A DNA stretch of 24,418 nucleotides from Eubacteriales bacterium (lineage in GTDB: Bacteria > Bacillota > Clostridia > Oscillospirales > CAG-272). The stretch is from positions 1 through 24,418 of the forward strand of contig JAZRGI010000168.1 of the NCBI GenBank assembly GCA_045644105.1, written 5' to 3'. Each line of letters opens with the position of its first letter. Positions within the stretch are counted from its first letter, which is position 1. This document shows positions 2 to 11,281 of the stretch, piece after piece. Position numbers and translations under genes: made by a program. Under the pieces are notes generated by a model that saw only the letters and a list, made by a program, of their open reading frames with translations, was not told where the DNA came from and did not search any database.

Positions 2-2818
2 GAACGAAACGAAGTAAACAAAAGCATCGAGATGTTGCCCGAAAAGGTACGGCAGATCATTCATCTGCACTACTTTGAGGATCTTTCCATTGCGGAGATC
101 GCCGATCGGATGCGTATTTCCGAGGGAACGGTCAAGCGGCAACTTCACGATGGACGAAAACGAATCAGAAAGGAACTTTGCGCGATGAATGAAAAGTATA
201 GTGATACACTTGTTGAGCGTGTTATGAAAAAGGTTGAAGAACTGAAATTGTGGCAGGTCAAAAACGATAAGAGCGGTTTTGAAAAGGTCTATTCGCAGGT
301 GCTTCGCGAGGTAGAGGAGCTTCCCGAATGTGTCGAAAAGCAACACGCGCTTGCCGACGTTCTGATGCGCGGTTGGTGGTGGTTGCCCGGCGAAAAGAAC
401 GACGCGTTGTTTGCCCGCATTGCCAATGCCGCTATGGAGGGTAAGAATGAGGAGGTCATGACCTTTATTGTTACCCGTGAGGATTACAAAGTGAACGGCG
501 GCAACGCGCGTATCGAGTTTATCCGTGAAAAGCAGATCCCGCGTCTTGAACAGGCGGGCTTTGTCAAGACGCTTGCTCGCGAATGGTTTTGGCTTGGCAG
601 AGAGTTATTCGGCAAGGGAAAGACCGAGGAGGGCAGTGCCGCATACGACAAGGCGGAGGAAATTCTTGGCGCATCGGATGCCTACCGTGTGTTGGTGCCC
701 TATGCTCGCAGAATGGAGGAAGAGCTACTCACACGCTATCAGGAAAAGACAAAAGAGCGTTACCGTGTCGGAGGCGAGGTGAACGAGATCCGCATGATCG
801 ACGGCAAGGCTCGCTATTGGCAAACGATCGAGGTGATCAAGGGCTATCTTTGCTCGGTCGATCGCACGGCGAATGCGATTTTCCGCAACGCATCGGGGTG
901 TGACGCAAGCTTTTTTGCCGACGTTCCGCTTGGTGGTCAGTCGATAGGCTCTGATGGCAGCACCTTGCGCTATCTTTCGGATGGTGAAACGGTGGAAACG
1001 CCCGCGGGTTGCTTTGACGGTTGTCAGATTTGGGAGGTCAGACGTTGGAGCGATTGGTCGGAGAAGGTCGTCTGCAAAACCTATTATAAGGAGGGCGTCG
1101 GCATTGTCCGTCAGGATCATATCGCCGACGGTGCAACCGTGGTTCACACGCTCAATGCTTATGAAATCAAAGGCGGTAGCGGTTTGTTACCCTTCCATGC
1201 GGGAAACACTTGGACGTACGCCTCCGATTATTCACCCGATGCGATATTTGACGAGCTGCAGTTTACGGTTGCCTATGCCGACGAGGGGCGCGTGTTGATT
1301 GGTTGTTGGGACAACGTTGAGAGAATGAAATACGACGAGGAATCGTGGTTGGATGCCGTGCAGGAGATCGCCAACGAATACTGTCACTCTCAAAAAAGCG
1401 GAAGCGAGAAGATCTGTGACGTATATCCCGCGATTGAGCGTGCCGAGCGACTTGCCGCAACGCCTATGCAAAAGGCTTATACCAAAGCGGCGGCATCGGT
1501 AGCAAGAAGAATATTGGCAACCGATCCAACCTTCAACCCCGATCATACGGCTACGGGACATTGGAATTTCTTTACCAGATGCTACGTCCAAAAGAAAGCC
1601 GATTCTCTTTGTTGGACAGGATACAATCCCCGTTGGTCGTTTGAGTGGAAGTGGATGGGCACGGTGGCACATGCCGACTGGCCGATACTGTACAACGATA
1701 TTTTGGGGATTTTGCAGGATGCAACAAATTGTATTTGGTCGGACGAGTGGTGCATCGGTGCCTCGCCCGTTGTCGAATACACCAAGTGGGACAGAACCGT
1801 TAAGACGCAGATTACCTGCGAGAATGGCGGAACGGTTACCACGAAAGCCGGAACCTTTGAAAACTGCTTCAAGCTCTGTCTTGATATCGGCGGTATGGCA
1901 GATGGATGGTCGTATCGTGGTGGTAACAAGGTTTACTATTTTGCCGAAGGAATCGGAATCGTTCGTACCGAGAATGAATATTGCGGTGGCGCAAGAACGG
2001 CGGTTTACGAGCTGACCTCTTACGAGGGCGTTGGCGAAGGATTTATGCCTCTTGCTGACGGTCTTGTGCGTCGATATGATGCACTAAATCTGACCGACGG
2101 TTTTGTGGGAGCGGTAGAATACACCTGCGTTGCTGATGAGGACGGAGATATTGTTGTATTTGCAGATCGCACGGGTATTCGTGAGCTTCCGCCTCCCATT
2201 ACCGAGTATTCTGTGATTCAAGGAGAGATGATTGAGCAGAAACTATGGAATGAGGGAAAATGGAAGGAAGGGCATATGAAGTACGGTGCCAACAACTTCC
2301 ATCTTATGCTCCACCTGCTTGCAAGACCGAGCCGTAATCGAAATAATGCAAAAAGATCGATTGAGATCAATGGCTTCTACATGAATATGATGGAGCTGCT
2401 CGGCGAAAACGGCATCGTTCCGCCTGCGTGGTATAATCTGTATGCTTGGACGGCCACTGTGAAATCGGCGGCATTGTTCGGTGACGGACAAAAGGAAGAG
2501 GGTTATGCAATGCTTGATACTGTCTTGAACTATTGCGAGTTGATCTCTCAAAACAAGAAGGGGGATCTGCTTGACACCGGAAAAGCAGAACTTCTTGGAG
2601 GATCAAAATACGAATATAAAAAATGCGTTATCGTACTTCCTGACGGTTCCAAGGAGCTGATTTCGTATGATTATCGAATGGAGTTTGATGCGAGCAATTT
2701 TGTTTATTGTCTTACTGCCCGTAGCGGTTGGGAATGGTTCAATCCCGTTCGCAATGAGGAGCGTTTCAAGGAATACGTAGAGCGTGCCAAGAAAATGGCA
2801 GACAGCATTAAGAAATGA
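2..2818 (+). CDS. ECF-type sigma-70 factor (region 4 visible, 5'-partial) with ~870-aa C-terminal extension
   Basis: The frame is open from the window edge (ERNEVNKSIEMLPEK...), so the true start lies upstream. LPEKVRQIIHLHYFEDLSIAEIADRMRISEGTVKRQLHDGRKRIRKEL matches the sigma-70 region 4.2 HTH pattern. Region 2 is not visible. TPR-like helices and two copies of a TxxTxAGxFxxC...YxxEGxGIVR beta-rich unit follow. Confidence 0.8.
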   Translation, partial: ERNEVNKSIEMLPEKVRQIIHLHYFEDLSIAEIADRMRISEGTVKRQLHDGRKRIRKELCAMNEKYSDTLVERVMKKVEELKLWQVKNDKSGFEKVYSQVLREVEELPECVEKQHALADVLMRGWWWLPGEKNDALFARIANAAMEGKNEEVMTFIVTREDYKVNGGNARIEFIREKQIPRLEQAGFVKTLAREWFWLGRELFGKGKTEEGSAAYDKAEEILGASDAYRVLVPYARRMEEELLTRYQEKTKERYRVGGEVNEIRMIDGKARYWQTIEVIKGYLCSVDRTANAIFRNASGCDASFFADVPLGGQSIGSDGSTLRYLSDGETVETPAGCFDGCQIWEVRRWSDWSEKVVCKTYYKEGVGIVRQDHIADGATVVHTLNAYEIKGGSGLLPFHAGNTWTYASDYSPDAIFDELQFTVAYADEGRVLIGCWDNVERMKYDEESWLDAVQEIANEYCHSQKSGSEKICDVYPAIERAERLAATPMQKAYTKAAASVARRILATDPTFNPDHTATGHWNFFTRCYVQKKADSLCWTGYNPRWSFEWKWMGTVAHADWPILYNDILGILQDATNCIWSDEWCIGASPVVEYTKWDRTVKTQITCENGGTVTTKAGTFENCFKLCLDIGGMADGWSYRGGNKVYYFAEGIGIVRTENEYCGGARTAVYELTSYEGVGEGFMPLADGLVRRYDALNLTDGFVGAVEYTCVADEDGDIVVFADRTGIRELPPPITEYSVIQGEMIEQKLWNEGKWKEGHMKYGANNFHLMLHLLARPSRNRNNAKRSIEINGFYMNMMELLGENGIVPPAWYNLYAWTATVKSAALFGDGQKEEGYAMLDTVLNYCELISQNKKGDLLDTGKAELLGGSKYEYKKCVIVLPDGSKELISYDYRMEFDASNFVYCLTARSGWEWFNPVRNEERFKEYVERAKKMADSIKK

Positions 2819-3036
2819 AAAACAAGTTACCCATAGGTGAATATCTGCTCGGCTATCGTAAGGAGCACGGAGTTACACAAGCGGCACTTGGAGCGCTTTT
2901 GGGCGTCAGTGCGGCTGCCGTTTCCAAATGGGAACGGCAGCAATCCTATCCCGACATCTTTCTGCTACCCGACATTTCAAAGCTTCTCGGAATCTCGATT
3001 GACATTTTGCTGGGAACGAAAAGCATAAGTCGATAA
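2815..3036 (+). CDS. XRE/Cro-CI family HTH transcriptional regulator (73 aa)
   Basis: IGEYLLGYRKEHGVTQAALGALLGVSAAAVSKWERQQSYPDIFLLPDISKLLGISIDILL is a classic HTH_3 pattern. It overlaps the upstream stop by ATGA (2815-2818). Confidence 0.92.
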   Translation: MKNKLPIGEYLLGYRKEHGVTQAALGALLGVSAAAVSKWERQQSYPDIFLLPDISKLLGISIDILLGTKSISR

Positions 3037-3284: not shown

Positions 3285-3334
3285 AAAAAACAAATCCGAA
3301 CCAATTTCGATTTACGAAACAGTTCGGATTTGTT
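3285..3334 (-). terminator. Terminator hairpin after the distal tRNA-Glu 3'-end copy
   Basis: 13-bp perfect inverted repeat aacaaatccgaac (3289-3301) / gttcggatttgtt (3322-3334), followed on the minus strand by a T-run. Confidence 0.75.
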
Positions 3335-3355
3335 ACGTTTGGTGACCCGTAGCAG

Positions 3356-3460
3356 AATCAAGAACTGAAACGCGCACGATAATGCGGTGATATACCGTAG
3401 ACAACATTGGTGCGCGTTATGGCATAACCCTTGCAGGCTCGGGTTTGCACAGTTCGATTC
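3356..3460 (-). ncRNA. Putative structured element, unit B (three-way junction; RNA or ssDNA)
   Basis: P1 3362-3367/3450-3455, P3 3370-3377/3410-3417 with a 32-nt loop, P2 3426-3430/3441-3445. Same topology as unit A with compensatory changes. Strand is inferred from the upstream tRNA operon. Confidence 0.55.
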
Positions 3461-3475
3461 ATAAAGATTACAAAG

Positions 3476-3523
3476 CAAAAGAAAAGAACGACATTGCTAA
3501 CGCAACATCGTTCTTTTCTTTTG
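3476..3523 (-). terminator. Terminator hairpin after the proximal tRNA-Glu 3'-end copy
   Basis: 16-bp perfect inverted repeat caaaagaaaagaacga (3476-3491) / tcgttcttttcttttg (3508-3523). Confidence 0.8.
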
Positions 3524-3540
3524 TTGGTGACCCGTAGCAG

Positions 3541-3642
3541 AATCAGGACTGAAGCGTGCGCGTTAATGGTGGATTCATTTTAAGAAAATCATAGCGCACG
3601 CTATGGACGAAAATCCCGTTGGGATTTTGTCGCAGTCCAATT
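3541..3642 (-). ncRNA. Putative structured element, unit A (three-way junction; RNA or ssDNA)
   Basis: P1 3546-3551/3633-3638, P3 3554-3561/3594-3601 with a 32-nt loop, P2 3610-3617/3621-3628. The junctions aa and tatgg are identical to unit B. Confidence 0.55.
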
Positions 3643-3659
3643 ATTTAACGAATGATTAA

Positions 3660-3703
3660 CAAATAAAAACAGACTCCGCTAAAGCGAAGTCTGTTTTCAT
3701 TTG
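3660..3703 (-). terminator. Terminator of the tRNA-Met/tRNA-Glu operon
   Basis: Long imperfect hairpin caaataaaaacagactccgc-taaa-gcgaagtctgttttcatttg immediately 3' of the CCA. The minus strand ends in gtttttatttg. Confidence 0.8.
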
Positions 3704-3704
3704 T

Positions 3705-3779
3705 TGGTGACCCGTAGCAGAATCGAACTGCTGTTACCGCCGTGAAAGGGCGGTGTCTTAACCGCTTGACCAACGGGCC
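3705..3779 (-). tRNA. tRNA-Glu (TTC)
   Basis: Reverse complement is GGCCCGTTGGTCAAGCGGTTAAGACACCGCCCTTTCACGGCGGTAACAGCAGTTCGATTCTGCTACGGGTCACCA. Anticodon arm CCGCC-CT-TTC-AC-GGCGG, T-loop TTCGATT, encoded CCA. Confidence 0.98.
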
Positions 3780-3856
3780 TGGTAGCGGGAATTGGACTTG
3801 AACCCATGACCTACCGGGTATGAACCGGTTGCTCTAGCCAACTGAGCTATCCCGCC
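3780..3856 (-). tRNA. tRNA-Met (CAT), most likely elongator
   Basis: Reverse complement is GGCGGGATAGCTCAGTTGGCTAGAGCAACCGGTTCATACCCGGTAGGTCATGGGTTCAAGTCCAATTCCCGCTACCA. It has a paired G1 and no 3xG-C initiator anticodon stem. The loop UUCAUAC resembles Bacillota elongator Met rather than Ile2. Confidence 0.93.
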
Positions 3857-3876: not shown

Positions 3877-3905
3877 ATTATATCACACGTTGATCGATTT
3901 GTCAA
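3877..3905 (-). promoter_or_regulatory. Sigma-A promoter of the tRNA operon
   Basis: Minus strand TTGACA-17 nt-TATAAT with TGn extended -10, about 20 nt upstream of tRNA-Met. Confidence 0.9.
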
Positions 3906-4115: not shown

Positions 4116-5246
4116 TTATGCCTGGGGAGCTTCCAACTCAATGGTTGCCGAGATAATGAACTTCTTTACCGATTCGATAATCTTTTCGCATTGCGGTTTG
4201 TTATCATACGATTCTCCGATAAAGGAGGGGGCAGACCCGATGTTCTTGAGAACGTAACGGTAGTTGCCGAACTTATCTCTGTCTACAAAGAAGTTACCTA
4301 CGTAAGCGGCACGTTTGAAAGAATCAATACCGTCACGGCAAGCCTTTTCGTTTGCGTAGTAGCGGCTTGCATAGAGAATCTGACCGTTATTGGCGGTGAG
4401 ATAGAAGCAATATTGCTTTTCTCCCTCCGCACAGATCTCAAACTTACCCATCTTCTGTGCCTGAGCCTCTGCCTTTTCAACCGCCTTCCAGTCGATGTCA
4501 TCGGGAGTTCTCTTACTGAGCTTTGCCGATTCATAAGCGGCAAGTGCCTGTTTATCGGGAACATAGCGAATGACCTTTGCGTTGCAGGCGAATTTCTTAA
4601 CCGACTCAACGCACTTCATGCATTGTTCCTTCGTCGTATAGTTTTCGCCGTAGTACTTGCGCGCCAGAATGAAGCGGTAGCGATTGTACTTGTCAATTCT
4701 AACGTCGAACTTACCTTCTGAAACGGTTTTCTTAAAGGTCTTAATGCCGTTAAGCGCGCCGAGAAGGGTGGTGAAGCTGGGGCTATCAAAAAGCACCTGT
4801 CCGTTGTTGGCAACCAGATAGAAGTGATAACCGTCTACCTCAAGCTCAAACTCATACTTACCGCACACCTTTTGTCCGCTTTTTAAGATCTCTTCATCGG
4901 CTTCCGCAATTGCCAGATCAAATGCCGCGCGAATGTCATCATCGGTTGTCGTCATGAAAAATGGACGTGCCGTAGTTGTTACGGTCGGCTTACTGGTATT
5001 GGTTGCCGTCTTGGCAGTCGCGGTCTGCTTTGCGGGTGCTGTCGGTTTGGCGGGGGCAACGTTTTTTGCCGACACCTCGGACGTTGCGGCGGCTTTTGGG
5101 GTTTCAACCGGTTGCGTTTCTGCGGGTACTTTTACGTTCTTGATCGAAGGCCCTTCAGGCGTTGCGGCGTTTGATTGCTCGGCTACGATCGCCTCTTGCT
5201 CCACCTTTTGTTTTTCTTTTTTTGCTTTTCTCTTGAACAGTCCCAT
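4116..5246 (-). CDS. DUF1508 (YegP/UPF0339-like) repeat protein with a long low-complexity N-terminus
   Basis: Units such as YHFYLVANNGQVLFDSPSFTT and YCFYLTANNGQILYASRYY, plus two partner units ending in ESVKK. The N-terminal ~125 aa are Lys/Ala/Thr/Pro-rich. RBS ggagg. Confidence 0.85.
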   Translation of the reverse strand: MGLFKRKAKKEKQKVEQEAIVAEQSNAATPEGPSIKNVKVPAETQPVETPKAAATSEVSAKNVAPAKPTAPAKQTATAKTATNTSKPTVTTTARPFFMTTTDDDIRAAFDLAIAEADEEILKSGQKVCGKYEFELEVDGYHFYLVANNGQVLFDSPSFTTLLGALNGIKTFKKTVSEGKFDVRIDKYNRYRFILARKYYGENYTTKEQCMKCVESVKKFACNAKVIRYVPDKQALAAYESAKLSKRTPDDIDWKAVEKAEAQAQKMGKFEICAEGEKQYCFYLTANNGQILYASRYYANEKACRDGIDSFKRAAYVGNFFVDRDKFGNYRYVLKNIGSAPSFIGESYDNKPQCEKIIESVKKFIISATIELEAPQA

Positions 5247-5396: not shown

Positions 5397-5467
5397 GTTA
5401 TTGATTCTACCGAACGAAACAAAGACTCTGATAAAATTTGGAAACTACACAAAGGAGAATTTTAAAA

Positions 5468-6679
5468 ATGAAGCTGAACCAGAATGATCTGAAAAAGTTT
5501 TGCATTGTTTATGCGTCGGATGCGCCCGAAATGGATCGCATTGCGCAACAACTGACTCAACTGCTCAAGGAGAAGCTTGGCGTTGTACTCGAGTGCTATT
5601 CGGATGCCTACATATCGGAGCGCGAGTATGAGATCCTGCTCGGTTGCACAAAGCGTGCTTTTAGCCGTGCTTGCTATACCGAGGGCGGTGTTGCTCCTAT
5701 GACCTATCGTGTCATCCTTGAAGGTACCAAGCTTCAGATTGCCTGTGGCGGTGCCGCATCTGCAACTGCGTTTTTGAAGGCGCTTGAGCAGATGATTGGC
5801 GACGGTGCGGTGCCGGAGGAGTTGGTGGACGGTAGTTATCTGGAAAACGAGTTGACCGGTCTTTCGATCGTTCCTTTGACCGAGGGCAGCACCCTTCGTG
5901 TGATGACCTCCAACGTCCTGACACACTGTTGGGAGGGAAATCGCGGCTATCCTTCGGTTGCTCACCGTGCAGAGATGTATGCCGCAACTCTGAACGCATA
6001 TCAACCCAACCTCATCGGTATTCAAGAAACCGACCTTCCCTGGATCGACTATCTGCCCTATTATTTTGAGGCGTTGCGCGTCTATTCGGGCGGTAAGCTT
6101 GACTATGCTTGCCTTGAAAACAGCTACCAGATGCCCGATGGTACGTGGATTCCCAACTATACCTCTCTGATCTACCGCAAGGATCGTTTTGACGTATTGG
6201 AGAGTGGTGCCGTTGCATATCCCTACGCCGTCAAGGAACTGAAGTTGAAGTGCCGCACCTGTACGTGGGCGATTTACAAGGATCGTATGGACGGTGAGCT
6301 TTACGGTGTATTCAACACACACTGGTCGTTTACCGCGGAAGAAACCGAGATCAGTATCCGCATGGGGCTTGAAACGGTGCATGAGAAGCAGGCAAAGTAT
6401 CCCGGTCTTCACGTATTCTGCACGGGAGATTTCAACAATCACCTTAACAAGTCGATCGAGAAATTCAGTGAACGCAGCGGTTTTGGCGATTCCAAAGACG
6501 AGGCGAAGAAGAATGGATCGCTCATCAACGAGAATCCCGGTATTCCCGAAAAAATTTACATCGACCACGTCTTTTTCAACGAGGGTGTAACGGTTACACG
6601 CCATGAAACGATTGATGCGCCCTTTACCGCAAAAATGTCCGACCATATGTTCCAATACGGAGATTTTGTACTCCAATAA
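5468..6679 (+). CDS. Endonuclease/exonuclease/phosphatase (EEP) family protein with one GH20b-like N-terminal alpha/beta domain, no signal peptide
   Basis: EEP motifs LRVMTSNV, GIQET, GDFN, IDHV, SDH. Start moved to ATG 5468, which follows the RBS aaaggag. Confidence 0.85.
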   Translation: MKLNQNDLKKFCIVYASDAPEMDRIAQQLTQLLKEKLGVVLECYSDAYISEREYEILLGCTKRAFSRACYTEGGVAPMTYRVILEGTKLQIACGGAASATAFLKALEQMIGDGAVPEELVDGSYLENELTGLSIVPLTEGSTLRVMTSNVLTHCWEGNRGYPSVAHRAEMYAATLNAYQPNLIGIQETDLPWIDYLPYYFEALRVYSGGKLDYACLENSYQMPDGTWIPNYTSLIYRKDRFDVLESGAVAYPYAVKELKLKCRTCTWAIYKDRMDGELYGVFNTHWSFTAEETEISIRMGLETVHEKQAKYPGLHVFCTGDFNNHLNKSIEKFSERSGFGDSKDEAKKNGSLINENPGIPEKIYIDHVFFNEGVTVTRHETIDAPFTAKMSDHMFQYGDFVLQ

Positions 6680-6697
6680 GCAAATAGGAGAGTCGAT

Positions 6698-8434
6698 ATG
6701 ATGAAAAAATTCTGCAGATTGCTCTGTCTATTGCTTGCCATTGCAACATTGTTGTCGTTATCGGTATCCTGCCGCGATGAGGACATCTTGTCGGACGAAG
6801 AGCCGGAGGAGCAGGGAATTGTCATTGTCAGCAAGGGAGTTCCCCATTATACCATTGTTTACGCCAAGACACTCAATAGCGAGTGTGTGGAACTTGCCTA
6901 CAAATTGCAGGACGAGATTCGTGAACGCGTTGGTGTCACGGTACAGATCAAGGTTGAGGATGATCAGACCGATGCCGATGCAAAGGAAATCCTGATTGGC
7001 GACACCGCTTATGAAGAAAGTAAAACTGTTTCCAAAATGATTGGGAAAAAGCAATATGCCATTATGGCAGAGGGAAACAAGATTGTTGTTGCCGCAAAAA
7101 GCAGTTTTATACTTGAAGAAGCCCTCTATTACTTTATCGAGCAGTTGATTCCGCGCAACGTTAAGACGGTCAGTGGAAAGTTTTCACTTTATCATGAGGA
7201 CATTATTGCTGATTACGAAGAGCTGTCCGAACCCCTCTTTAACGGAGAGAGTCTGTCCAAGTATTCTATCGTATACTCCAAAAATGTTCCGGGCATGGAG
7301 GATCTCGCCGCAGATCTTGCAAAGCGTATTAAGAGTGCGCTCAAGTTGGATATTGACTACTATCCCGACACCTTCCGTGAGGAAACCGAATACGAGATTC
7401 TGGTTGGTTTGACCAACCGTGACTACAGTGTAGCGCTTTTTGCCGACGGAAACGTTCCGTTGATGTCCCACAAATTGGTGGTTGACGGAACCAAAATTCA
7501 CTTTGTGGCTGCAGGCGGATACTCCATGGGAGAATTGGTTTCGAAGTTTGTTTTAGGCTACGTGCTGGGCACCAATTTACGCAATCTGCGTGACGGTGTC
7601 TATATGGATACCGATCTGATGCCGATTCGCTCGCAAGCCTTGACCGAGGGAAGCACGCTTCGCGTTATGACCTCAAACGTGCTTGCGGACATTTGGGAGG
7701 ATAACCGCGGATATCCGTCGATTGAGGCGCGTGCCGAAATGTATGCCGCAACGTTGAGCGTTTACCGTCCCGATCTGGTTGGTATTCAGGAAACCGACCA
7801 GGCTTGGCTCAACACCTTGCCGTACTATCTTGGGTATTTGAAAACTCATTTTTCTCTTGATTACGAGTGGATCGAAAACACCTTCAAAACGACGTCGGGA
7901 AGCAAAGTTCCCAATATGAGTTCATTGATCTACCGCAAGGACGTCTTTTCTTTGGTGAGTAGCGGAGCGCAGGAGTTTTCCTTTGCCAACGATAAAAAGT
8001 ATAAGATCCGTGTTGCCACGTGGGCGGTGTTTACACATAAGCAGAGCAACGAAAAGTATGCGCTTGTCAACACGCACTGGTCGTTTACTGCGGAGGAGGG
8101 CGCGATCTCCGTGGAAGAGGAGTGCGCTTTGATTGAGTCGCTCAAGAAAAAATATGACGGATTACACGTTTTTTGTACGGGTGACTTCAACAACCACTTG
8201 AACAGTTCCTTTGGACTTTTCAAGACGACAAGTGGATTGACCGATTCCAAAGAGGCGGCAGACGAAAACGGCGTATTGATCAATAGGAATGCAGGAATTC
8301 CCGAAAAGATCTACATTGATCACGTTTTGTTCAATGACGGAATCACAGTAACGCGACATGAAACGATCGAGCATGCCTATGCAAGCAAGATGTCCGACCA
8401 CTTGCCGCAGTACGGTGACTTTATTGTAAATTAA
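6698..8434 (+). CDS. Lipoprotein with two GH20b-like N-terminal domains and an EEP phosphoesterase domain
   Basis: Signal peptide MMKKFCRLLCLLLAIATLLSLSVS-C. Two IVY...EIL(I/V)GxT domains. EEP motifs MTSNV, GIQET, GDFN, IDHV, SDH. Confidence 0.87.
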   Translation: MMKKFCRLLCLLLAIATLLSLSVSCRDEDILSDEEPEEQGIVIVSKGVPHYTIVYAKTLNSECVELAYKLQDEIRERVGVTVQIKVEDDQTDADAKEILIGDTAYEESKTVSKMIGKKQYAIMAEGNKIVVAAKSSFILEEALYYFIEQLIPRNVKTVSGKFSLYHEDIIADYEELSEPLFNGESLSKYSIVYSKNVPGMEDLAADLAKRIKSALKLDIDYYPDTFREETEYEILVGLTNRDYSVALFADGNVPLMSHKLVVDGTKIHFVAAGGYSMGELVSKFVLGYVLGTNLRNLRDGVYMDTDLMPIRSQALTEGSTLRVMTSNVLADIWEDNRGYPSIEARAEMYAATLSVYRPDLVGIQETDQAWLNTLPYYLGYLKTHFSLDYEWIENTFKTTSGSKVPNMSSLIYRKDVFSLVSSGAQEFSFANDKKYKIRVATWAVFTHKQSNEKYALVNTHWSFTAEEGAISVEEECALIESLKKKYDGLHVFCTGDFNNHLNSSFGLFKTTSGLTDSKEAADENGVLINRNAGIPEKIYIDHVLFNDGITVTRHETIEHAYASKMSDHLPQYGDFIVN

Positions 8435-8440
8435 GCAGAT

Positions 8441-8479
8441 GGCGGACGTTTTTATTTCATAAAGACCGTCCGCCTTTTT
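8441..8479 (+). terminator. Intrinsic terminator
   Basis: ggcggacg (8441-8448) / cgtccgcc (8467-8474) followed by ttttt. Confidence 0.7.
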
Positions 8480-8534
8480 AGAAAGTGCGGTTGCCGAAGA
8501 GGGGAACCGTCAACACTAAAAAGGAGATAAAACC

Positions 8535-9434
8535 ATGAAGCTTTCTACCTCTACGGGCGATTTTGCCGCTTATACGCAACATCAAAGCGAGGCGATCGGA
8601 TGGATTGCGCAGGCGGGATTCCGTTATATTGATTACAATTTTGCTACCGATTGCGCGCGTGGCAACGGTATTTACGGCGGTGACTTTGAAACCTATGTTG
8701 ACGGTATCAAACGACGCGCCGACGAGCTTGGCGTTGCCTTTGTGCAGGCGCACGCTCCGGCGGGACAACCCTTTGTCCGCGGTTGGGATGAGTTGGTCGA
8801 GCAGACGGTTCTTTGCGTCAAGGCGTGTGCCAAGCTCGGGGTTAAGAATCTTGTCGTTCATTCCGCCTATGCTCCCGACATGACGGTGGAGGAAACCATT
8901 GAAAAAAACAAGGAATTCTATACCCCTATTCTGCAGGCGGCAGAGGAGCATGACGTTTATATCCTCACCGAGAACTTTAACAAAATGACCAAGCCGAACG
9001 TCTTCTGGATCGACAACGCAACCGATCTGTTGCGCCTGATCGAATACGTTGACCATCCGCTTTTCCAAGCGGTTTGGGATACGGGACACGCAAATCTGCA
9101 GGAGCTTGCGCAGGATGCCGAGCTACGGTTGCTCGGTTCCCATGTCAAGGCACTGCACGTGCAGGACAATCTTGGTGACCGCGATGCCCATCTTGCCCCC
9201 TATATGGGAACCCTGAATCTGGATGCCGTCATGCACGGCTTGCAGGAGATCGGCTTTAACGGATACTTCAACTTTGAGGTTGGCCCATTCTTTACCCAAG
9301 CGGGACGCCGCAGAGATTACGAGGCGGATAAGCGCTTGAAGCTTCCTCCGATCGAGCTTCGGTTGAAGGCAGAGGAGCTGCTTTATGAGATCGGCAAATG
9401 CGCGCTTCAAGCTTACGGTTGCTTTGAGGAATAA
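8535..9434 (+). CDS. Sugar phosphate isomerase/epimerase family (xylose-isomerase-like TIM barrel, AP_endonuc_2)
   Basis: Metal-ligand motifs LTEN, WDTGHAN, LHVQDN, DAHLAP, FNFEV. RBS aaggag. Confidence 0.88.
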   Translation: MKLSTSTGDFAAYTQHQSEAIGWIAQAGFRYIDYNFATDCARGNGIYGGDFETYVDGIKRRADELGVAFVQAHAPAGQPFVRGWDELVEQTVLCVKACAKLGVKNLVVHSAYAPDMTVEETIEKNKEFYTPILQAAEEHDVYILTENFNKMTKPNVFWIDNATDLLRLIEYVDHPLFQAVWDTGHANLQELAQDAELRLLGSHVKALHVQDNLGDRDAHLAPYMGTLNLDAVMHGLQEIGFNGYFNFEVGPFFTQAGRRRDYEADKRLKLPPIELRLKAEELLYEIGKCALQAYGCFEE

Positions 9435-9457
9435 CTATATTTTTTACGGCGTTTACA

Positions 9458-9483
9458 AAAAGGCGGTTGACAGACCGCCTTTT
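9458..9483 (+). terminator. Intrinsic terminator whose stem-loop contains the next -35 box
   Basis: aaaaggcggt-tgacag-accgcctttt. Confidence 0.75.
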
Positions 9484-9496
9484 CCTATGGTATAAT
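9467..9496 (+). promoter_or_regulatory. Sigma-A promoter for the third EEP gene
   Basis: TTGACA (9467-9472)-18 nt-TATAAT (9491-9496) with extended TG. Confidence 0.75.
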
Positions 9497-9571
9497 AAAT
9501 TTACTTGAGGCGCGTTGCGGGCGCGGAACGCCTGTAACGTGTTGTCATGCTAATGAAAGCGAGGAACGAAA

Positions 9572-11281
9572 ATGAAGAACTTCTGCAAATGGTTGTGTTT
9601 TCTTTTGGCTTTGGTGATGTTGGTGTCCTGTACCAACGGTGCGCCGGAGGAGCCGACGCCAAAGGATGAGGGAACTCTGATCGTCAGACAGGGAATTCCG
9701 CAGTATTCGATTGTATATGAAGAGGGATCCAACTATGTCGATCTGATCAACCGCGTTGCGGACACGGTCAAGGAATATACGGGTGCACAACTTACGGTCA
9801 AGGAAGAATCCTCCGAGCAGGATGCAAATGCAAAGGAAATTCTGATCGGTTCTACCAAGTATGAGGAATCGGTTGAGGCAAAAAAAGAGCTGAAAAAGAA
9901 TGAATACGTCATCAAGGCGGTCGGCAATAAGATCGTTATCGTCGGAGCTAATGACGATGCACTGGAGGATGCGCTTTACTACGTAAAGGACGAACTGATC
10001 CCCAAAAATGCAAAACGTGTTGACGGAAAAGCCATGCTATATCACGAAGACTATGAAGGAACCTTTGTAGCGCCGACAGAGATTCTGTTTAACGGTGTAC
10101 CGATTTCCGAGTTCAGTGTGGTTTATTCTAAAACGGTTCCCGAAATAGAAGCGCTTGCTCAGACACTCGCAACCCACATTGGCAATCTGTTTAAGAAAAC
10201 GGTTGCTTGCTACAGTGATGAGGAACCTGAGCGCGAGTACGAGATTTTGCTCGGATTGACCAACCGTGATTTCAGTGCCGAGTGTTTTGCCGAGGCGCAG
10301 GTGCCCTTGATGTCTTACCAATTGGTGGTTGCAGGCGACAAGGTTCAGTTTGCTTGCCCCGGTGCGTATTCTGCCAATGAAATGGTAACCGAGTTTCGTT
10401 CTGCCTATCTGATGGCGATCTCCTATCGCAATCTGCGTGACGGCGTCTATATGGATAAGAATCTGTTGACGGTAACCGAGCAACCTCTGACCGAGGGTAG
10501 CACGTTGCGCATTATGACTTCCAACATTCTTGCCGACCGTTGGGTGGGAGATCGAAACTATCCCTCTGTTGCAAAGCGCGCGGAGATGTACACGGCAACA
10601 CTAATGGTTTACCGTCCTTCTTTGATCGGTGTACAGGAAACCGATGATTTGTGGACCGTCCATCTTCCGTACTACATCGATTACCTGGGCGATTACCTGT
10701 ATATGAACTACGAATGGATCGAAAATACCTATCCGATCTCTCCCGGAAAAGTGGTTCCCAATATGACTTCCATTATTTATTCCAAGGATGAATTTACTTA
10801 CGTGGATAGCAGTATGCAGGAATTCAGTGCTTTTAATCATACTGCATATAAGCTTCGCGTTCTGACGTGGGGTATCTTTACGCATAAGGCATCCGGTGAG
10901 AAATACGCGTTGGTAAACACGCACTACGATGGTGATATCAAGTACGGTCCCGATGAAATCAAAGAGCAGGCGGCTCTTGTAACCAAGATCAAGAATAAGT
11001 ATTCGGGTATTCACGTTTTCTGTACGGGTGACTACAACAATCACGGCGGATATAATATCGGCGATCTCAAAAAGGCTCTGAATATGTTGACAACCAAAGA
11101 TATTGCAAAGACGAGCGGGACGCTGGTGAACGAGATACCGGGTATTCCGGAGGGTATCTACATCGACCATATCTTTACCGAAACGACCAACGTAGTTACC
11201 AGACATGAAACCATCGACGTCAATTTTGCGAGTATCCTTTCGGATCACCGTCTGCAGTACGCCGATATCATTGTAAAATAA
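9572..11281 (+). CDS. Lipoprotein with two GH20b-like N-terminal domains and an EEP phosphoesterase domain (paralog of 6698-8434)
   Basis: Signal peptide MKNFCKWLCFLLALVMLVS-C. Motifs LRIMTSNI, GVQET, GDYN, IDHI, SDH. Colinear similarity to 6698-8434. Confidence 0.87.
   Translation: MKNFCKWLCFLLALVMLVSCTNGAPEEPTPKDEGTLIVRQGIPQYSIVYEEGSNYVDLINRVADTVKEYTGAQLTVKEESSEQDANAKEILIGSTKYEESVEAKKELKKNEYVIKAVGNKIVIVGANDDALEDALYYVKDELIPKNAKRVDGKAMLYHEDYEGTFVAPTEILFNGVPISEFSVVYSKTVPEIEALAQTLATHIGNLFKKTVACYSDEEPEREYEILLGLTNRDFSAECFAEAQVPLMSYQLVVAGDKVQFACPGAYSANEMVTEFRSAYLMAISYRNLRDGVYMDKNLLTVTEQPLTEGSTLRIMTSNILADRWVGDRNYPSVAKRAEMYTATLMVYRPSLIGVQETDDLWTVHLPYYIDYLGDYLYMNYEWIENTYPISPGKVVPNMTSIIYSKDEFTYVDSSMQEFSAFNHTAYKLRVLTWGIFTHKASGEKYALVNTHYDGDIKYGPDEIKEQAALVTKIKNKYSGIHVFCTGDYNNHGGYNIGDLKKALNMLTTKDIAKTSGTLVNEIPGIPEGIYIDHIFTETTNVVTRHETIDVNFASILSDHRLQYADIIVK

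Follow-up and report, generated by a model that had tools for sequence, protein, structure and literature searches.

The two repeat units that follow tRNA-Glu in the window (the whole stretch of DNA analysed, 24,418 nt) are members of a large family of folded, gene-less repeats found in one genus of uncultured gut Clostridia, and this repeat family has apparently not been described before. They are analogues, not homologues, of the tRNA-linked repeats (TLRs) of E. coli (RtT/RttR, RrA/B/F). The explanation that we prefer, and that we hold about as firmly as we doubt it, is that they form a new family of TLR-like modules that host recombination spreads and reshuffles through shared homology, and that the units are probably small RNAs made by read-through.

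In the window the units lie on the minus strand behind a tRNA-Met/tRNA-Glu operon, and the features of the locus, in the order in which this strand is read, are as follows:

3877..3905, minus strand: sigma-70 promoter, consensus, of the tRNA-Met/tRNA-Glu operon (TTGACA, 17-nt spacer, TATAAT, plus an upstream TG; matches 12/12)
3780..3856, minus strand: tRNA-Met(CAU)
3705..3779, minus strand: tRNA-Glu(UUC) with encoded CCA, the final 20 nt of which (3705-3724) are the repeated core
3659..3704, minus strand: hairpin T1, an intrinsic-terminator-like stem right behind the tRNA CCA, which opens unit 1 (-28.9 kcal/mol, z -10.6)
3536..3651, minus strand: three-way junction of unit 1 (P1, 3633-3642 x 3541-3551; P2, 3606-3631; P3, 3553-3602), with an R1 score of 93.9 bits, a single-sequence fold of z -4.0, and covariation
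3525..3544, minus strand: tRNA-Glu 3' end, exact copy 1, the closing part of unit 1 (3525-3704, 180 nt)
3476..3523, minus strand: hairpin T2, which opens unit 2 (-31.1 kcal/mol, z -9.1)
3351..3468, minus strand: three-way junction of unit 2 (P1, 3450-3460 x 3355-3367; P2, 3422-3448; P3, 3369-3418), with an R1 score of 104.5 bits and a fold of z -2.4
3340..3359, minus strand: tRNA-Glu 3' end, exact copy 2, the closing part of unit 2 (3340-3524, 185 nt)
3289..3334, minus strand: hairpin T3, the ancestral terminator of the locus (-23.6 kcal/mol, z -6.0), found directly behind tRNA-Glu or tRNA-Lys in unit-less relatives

An exact search for the terminal 20-mer of tRNA-Glu gave three occurrences in the window (3705-3724, 3525-3544 and 3340-3359), at spacings of 180 and 185 nt; the 1.76-Mb assembly holds no further copy, and none is expected by chance (0 in 100 shuffles). 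The initial annotation had noticed this twofold recurrence, a different strong hairpin behind the tRNA end and behind each copy, and a homology that continues into the T-loop with one or two extra nucleotides, and all of this was confirmed, the hairpins folding at -28.9, -31.1 and -23.6 kcal/mol and the T-loop copies of units 1 and 2 carrying one and two extra bases, respectively. It had also stated that the window lacks an integrase, and indeed no integrase or transposase domain was found in the 18 large ORFs scanned. A scan of the window with Rfam 15, at gathering score and with E up to 10, returned the two tRNAs and noise and nothing more. In the promoter scan, the only promoter-like site near the units on the tRNA strand was the tRNA operon promoter at 3877..3905; none was found inside the units, in which a TATAAC-like junction is not conserved.

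The genes around the locus were also inspected. Downstream of T3, two genes (2-3036, plus strand) are convergent with the tRNAs: a small gene of the XRE-type HTH class (2815-3036, plus strand) overlaps the stop of a neighbouring gene of more than 928 aa, which carries sigma-70 region 4 at its N-terminus and a part resembling DUF3108 and within which the contig ends. Further along, three consecutive large paralogues (5438-11281, plus strand), each with a C-terminal endonuclease/exonuclease/phosphatase domain, form a row that also includes a GH32 hydrolase and a TIM-barrel protein of the xylose-isomerase-like kind, and a protein with two DUF1508 domains is encoded upstream of this row (4116-5246, minus strand).

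The extent of the family was determined with a covariance model (R1) built from 15 units of relatives. A total of about 300 matches were found in 60 of the 78 genomes of the genus, with a maximum of 15 in one genome. The model found nothing in sister genera of the same family (0/7), and among the other sampled genomes of the order it matched 2 of 150, one clearly (G036) and one weakly. Among named records, the closest are MAGs of uncultured Clostridia from deer caecum, and the family is young. G036 is the sole clear carrier outside the genus, and the flanks of its unit (L019, G036:C29; T3 and the argS-side terminator) are about 96% identical to genus sequences; the sequence of this contig suggests a recent transfer or mis-binning. 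In the genome of the window itself, tRNA-Lys at the end of a contig is followed by a third unit.

Linkage to tRNA genes was analysed in 132 units together with their flanks. Wherever an upstream gene lies within reach, the 3' arm and the tail of the unit are those of that gene, and the 5' arm fits the tRNA more loosely, with many G-T pairs, as if it followed the 3' arm by compensation. Units stand behind tRNA-Glu(UUC) (two T-stem variants), tRNA-Glu(CUC), the tRNAs for Lys, Val, Arg, Gly, Pro and Ala, three tRNAs for Ser, and tmRNA, so the analogous units behind other tRNAs that the initial annotation had thought worth seeking do exist, behind at least 12 tRNA species plus tmRNA (at least 13 RNA genes). 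Several units are preceded by a pseudo tRNA 3' end in place of a tRNA (L057 in G008, L064 in G074, L053 in G067, L063 in G009, and L074:6270-6300 in G022). This stretch of about 30 nt (TAGTTCG...CACCA) directly follows a protein gene's stop codon, has a terminator behind it, and may be an att remnant of another type of element.

On the tRNA strand, each unit runs from its terminator hairpin through a short spacer and a folded body to the copy of the tRNA end, and carries no genes of its own. The body begins with an 11-nt reverse complement of the tRNA T-loop region, and this antisense arm pairs with the T-loop copy at the body's far end to form helix P1, in which the extra base is bulged; a hairpin (P2) and a 9-bp helix with a long loop (P3) lie within P1 and form a three-way junction with it. 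Both window units adopt this junction when folded singly, with the z values given above, and RNAalifold returned the same junction for the 15 units of relatives. Across 49 units, 96.3% of the cells were paired and both sides had changed in 15 of 22 pairs, which none of 500 shuffles reached, whereas pairing was about 32% in a control on the same units with the partners slid by one column.

The tRNA-derived stretch of the units corresponds to positions 52-76 of the cognate tRNA, with one or two extra bases after C56. Such an extra base is present in 123 of 127 units (A in 54, T in 52, C in 9, and CT, TT or AA in a few; none in 4), and no constraint on its identity was seen. The arms of P1 read (C/G)AGTTC-N-GAYTC, copying the tRNA T-loop, and the 16-nt tail behind P1 is unpaired; a candidate pairing of this tail with the spacer upstream of P1 brought no gain (-4.4 vs -4.3 kcal/mol for shuffled tails) and was rejected. 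How far the tRNA copy reaches at its 3' end differs among units, from about 9 to 20 nt: of the 115 typed units, 45 have the full copy and the others a shorter one, and both window units have the full 20/20 nt. The strand asymmetry of P1 (G-T 89 vs A-C 27) is opposite in direction to that of P3 (G-T 11 vs A-C 24), and the folding energy of the whole unit is not lower on the sense strand.

Comparison with relatives indicated that the units are inserted DNA and that their number varies, both as the initial annotation had supposed. At the tRNA-Met/tRNA-Glu locus, there are no units in five genomes (G019, G023, G016, G061 and G062), one in about a dozen, and two or more in the window, G024, G018, G001 and G005. 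Precise empty sites, with T3 immediately next to tRNA-Glu, are found in G019, G061 and G062. Because CCA is followed directly by AACGT and hairpin T3 in the empty sites, identical to the context after the window's last copy, we conclude that T3 is the ancestral terminator and that the units are insertions between CCA and T3. An equally clean empty/filled pair is available at tRNA-Lys (G053 vs G049).

T3 was also considered as the end of a mobile element, and this was ruled out: argS and other housekeeping genes follow it in the empty site of G019, and it is a common terminator of tRNA-Glu and tRNA-Lys in the genus. Together with about 30 nt downstream (to roughly 3258), T3 forms a conserved module that is 90-98% identical in 23 of 61 genomes of the genus, where it sits behind tRNA-Glu, tRNA-Lys and once another tRNA-like end, and often at contig ends. 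Such conservation is unusual for a terminator common to different tRNA operons.

Tandem arrays could also have arisen in place, by tandem duplication of one ancestral small-RNA gene behind tRNA-Glu and divergence of the copies, without any transfer from locus to locus. The arrays of many relatives do contain recent tandem copies that are near-identical, terminator included, and the TLRs of E. coli are treated as sRNAs (PMC8144298), but we judge this origin very improbable. The two window units are about 60% alike, and each is closer to a unit of another genome: T1 and the 5' half of unit 1 are about 90% identical to the single unit of G058, and the closest relatives of unit 2 are the tRNA-Glu units of G043 and G017. 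The window units come from different sub-lineages of the family, which fits two separate gains rather than one local duplication and agrees with the serial insertions that the initial annotation had proposed. Also against duplication in place are the spread over at least 13 different RNA genes with matched arms and a tree of the interiors (arms excluded) in which the tRNA type changes 42 times, compared with a minimum of 10 and a mean of 75 in shuffled data.

One genome, G048, has a Glu-linked unit and an Arg-type unit whose interiors are about 95% identical and whose arms and flanks all differ, with breakpoints where P2 starts and where P3 ends. Since these units share the interior and neither arms nor flanks, interiors are transferred from one locus to another or undergo conversion. 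Together with the occurrence of units behind many tRNA types, this exchange of interiors largely refutes the duplication in place. Another unit, L064 (G074:C216), is chimeric, with a body and 5' arm of the Glu type and a 3' arm of the Lys type that leave P1 weakened, and is a direct trace of recombination between units of unlike tRNA type. Across the genus, units are gained, lost and tandemly duplicated, swap interiors among loci, and can bracket cargo.

The 3' ends of tRNA genes are classical integration sites, and the copies of tRNA ends might be attR remnants of successive integrase-borne islands or prophages that were later deleted. We give this origin next to no weight. A classical integrase island does occur in tRNA-Ser of one genome, G076, with a plain 27-nt tRNA fragment beside the integrase, but this att fragment lacks the junction as well as the extra base. 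The conserved, covarying structure and the narrow size range of the units are unlike random deletion remnants, and neither units nor unit motifs had a match in phage, plasmid and IMG/VR collections, in keeping with the initial annotation's view that these are not random remnants of large islands. It had further named a fixed copy number with no homologous units at other tRNAs, or a position at the ends of large ICEs or prophages, as findings that would count against its reading; copy number varies, with homologous units elsewhere, and no such ends were found.

The G076 island (L189:2719-3900, G076:C7) lies in tRNA-Ser(GCU), where the tRNA fragment adjoins the integrase gene and Ser-type units lie beyond, and it allows an ordinary att scar to be compared with a unit side by side. 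Its tyrosine integrase, which stands beside a unit, was rejected as a mobiliser: it belongs to an ordinary tRNA-Ser island that merely displaced older units from the tRNA.

Sublocations of tRNA-integrating islands were reportedly described by Williams in 2002. The units resemble CIMEs and tRNA islands in that direct repeats of a tRNA 3' segment flank the insert, the tRNA stays intact, accretion is in tandem and the element lacks an integrase. They differ in measuring about 180 nt rather than kilobases, in having a covarying folded module in place of arm-type protein sites, in the extra base that interrupts the repeat, in the variable limits of the repeat, and in that no partner integrase was found. 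Neither an uninterrupted att identity block nor a fixed crossover is seen, and no tyrosine integrase tracks the units, PF00589 having 4-8 matches per genome in unit-bearing and unit-less genomes alike.

The initial annotation had explained the units as a tiny non-autonomous element mobilised in trans. The units are indeed real, non-random, structured and evolutionarily mobile; the proposed mechanism, mobilisation by a tyrosine recombinase or an HUH/Y1 transposase, found no support, as no such enzyme tracks the units. The Y1/HUH transposase (PF01797) is present in 14 of 78 genomes, unrelated to unit presence, and was not found in G018 (15 units), G015 or G022, the latter two being 95% complete; Y1 in unit-carrying genomes, as for miniature derivatives of IS200/IS605 (PATE), is therefore not what is seen. 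The DEDD recombinase (PF01548) of IS110 bridge-RNA elements was likewise rejected, with matches in 0 of 5 near-complete genomes, and the arms of a unit are complementary to each other, unlike the bridge-RNA logic of two separate target halves. Nor was there support for the crossover in the T-loop that the initial annotation had suggested, since the extra base is inside the tRNA-derived stretch and is not a crossover scar, and since the repeat limits vary.

Pairs of units bracket genes in five genomes, over 1.5-9.6 kb, and no recombinase was found in any of the five stretches:

G036: cargo of 1.5 kb, ECF-type sigma factor
G022: cargo of 3.3 kb
G018: cargo of 9.6 kb, sugar-utilisation genes, behind tRNA-Ser
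G076: cargo of 2.3 kb
G087: cargo of 1.45 kb

The direct repeats around the cargo run from the start of P1 to 20 nt beyond T3 in G036, from the terminator to the core in G022, and from the spacer to 75 nt beyond the core in G018. A homology between the window cargo and that of G036 was considered and rejected, sigma region 4 alone being in common, and a large serine recombinase beside the distal unit of G022 was set aside as part of a separate adjoining element.

These stretches bear on the main alternative, which we hold to be less likely than the preferred explanation and in which the units are miniature integrative cassettes mobilised in trans. The folded strand (P1 with its extrahelical base) would mimic the duplex T-loop region of a target tRNA gene, and recombination of the unit with this gene would be carried out by a trans-encoded enzyme, in the manner of the integron attC or the CTX-phage attP; cargo-less units would be empty cassettes, and cargo between units loaded ones. 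The precision of filled and empty sites, tandem arrays that begin at the tRNA, the re-fitting of P1 to each target tRNA, the integrase-less cargo between units in G036, G022, G018, G076 and G087, and the fast spread inside one genus all speak for it, as does a bulged base that keeps a fixed position in 123 of 127 units and may be any base; the excess of G-T pairs in P1 suggests that a single strand folds. However, no candidate enzyme emerged (Y1 in 14/78, IS110 in 0/5, tyrosine recombinases with and without units), the limits of the cargo repeats differ case by case, the 3' extent of the tRNA copy is variable, and an extra base within the tRNA-derived stretch is a misfit with a conservative crossover. 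The units also lack an attC-type GTTRRRY box, and in a preprint on mobilome sequencing the tyrT repeats of E. coli gave raised coverage and no circular-DNA signal (bioRxiv 10.1101/2024.07.17.603846).

Taken together, the variable limits of the cargo repeats, the tandem copies that include the terminator and the variable extent of the tRNA copy fit homology-driven recombination better than a fixed crossover. Homology alone, in turn, does not explain the clean insertions flanked by 20-25 nt, the arms matched to new tRNAs, or the retained extra base.

As in integrons, arrays grow from one fixed site, each unit ends like an attC in an imperfect palindrome with an extrahelical base whose structure is conserved over sequence, and cargo genes without a recombinase lie between sites. 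The differences are that no IntI/attI/Pc platform is seen beside the arrays, that there is no R-box (GTTRRRY) consensus, that the arms of the palindrome copy the neighbouring tRNA, and that most of the present units are gene-less. In its full form, a tRNA-homing cassette system with the units as recombination sites, a folded single-stranded T-loop mimic, an obligatory extrahelical base and a trans-acting enzyme, the idea appears rather doubtful to us. If it were true, empty and gene-carrying cassettes would be stacked behind tRNA and tmRNA genes, the loaded ones with sugar utilisation genes, sigma factors and nuclease-like genes, and the system would be a functional parallel to integrons that had arisen in gut Clostridia.

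To our knowledge, TLRs have been known in E. coli since 1978, have no agreed origin or function, and are treated in print as an enterobacterial oddity. The repeats of the tyrT operon (RtT/RttR) were reportedly described by Egan and Landy in that year. In E. coli, ten loci carry a total of 22 TLRs, between 1 and 5 each (Stenum et al. 2021, PMC8144298), and the 3' end of each consists of 18-19 nt of the 3' end of the upstream tRNA or rRNA (PMC8144298). The TLRs of the rrn operons, the RrA, RrB and RrF sRNAs, have a terminator on either side; they are read-through transcripts that undergo processing and bind both Hfq and CsrA (PMC8144298).

The present units share with the E. coli TLRs a same-strand position immediately after a tRNA or rRNA gene, an arrangement of 1-5 tandem units of about 130-180 nt per locus at several loci per genome, 18-20 terminal nt that exactly repeat the upstream gene's 3' end, and a 5' arm complementary to that copy (10 nt in E. 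coli, the 11-nt P1 here); like the rrn units, they stand between two terminators. In MG1655 tyrT (L190:1205-1738), each 178-nt RtT repeat has a 10-nt arm, GGGGAAGGAT, which is complementary to its own copy of the tRNA-Tyr end and lies 91 nt upstream of it, a pairing of which no mention was found in the literature account of TLRs (PMC8144298). The RtT repeat also holds an internal T-loop-like motif, GGTTCGAC.

The present units differ from the E. coli TLRs in their three-way-junction interior and in their phylum (Clostridia), in the pairing, which involves tRNA positions 52-61 with an inserted base here and 58-67 in E. coli, in a strong terminator of its own for every unit, and in that they also bracket gene cargo. 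In position, 3'-end identity, number of units per locus and number of loci per genome they agree with the TLRs as defined for E. coli. They are not members of RF00391: this Rfam model of RtT scored 133-138 bits on the MG1655 tyrT control and had no match in the window at gathering score or with E up to 10, from which we conclude that the architecture is common to both and the family is not.

Under the preferred explanation, that of TLR-like modules, homology among tRNA ends, terminators and units would allow host recombination to drive spread and turnover with no dedicated integrase. Transcription from the strong tRNA promoter would read through the preceding terminator and yield a small RNA, by analogy with the rrn TLRs of E. 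coli, and the tRNA-like 3' end may act as a processing or stability signal. That the tRNA promoter is the only one near the window units supports read-through, and a role of the units as RNA is likewise suggested by the E. coli precedent. On the other side, a very strong terminator before each unit should leave little read-through, the strand asymmetry is mixed, with P1 and P3 opposite, and the units that bracket cargo look more like recombination sites than like RNA genes. As for host recombination, flanks of 20-25 nt of tRNA end are short for a RecA-type process, which also leaves unexplained the fit of both arms to each new tRNA and the extra base kept at one position of the T-loop.

The units represent a family unrelated to the TLRs of E. 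coli that follows the same logic, with an antisense arm, a folded core, a copy of the tRNA 3' end and bracketing terminators. Within a single genus of uncultured ruminant-gut Clostridia it has grown to hundreds of copies, which follow at least 13 RNA genes. Its young age, its many copies and its clear empty and filled sites make it well suited to finding out whether repeats of this kind act as small RNAs, as recombination sites or in both ways.
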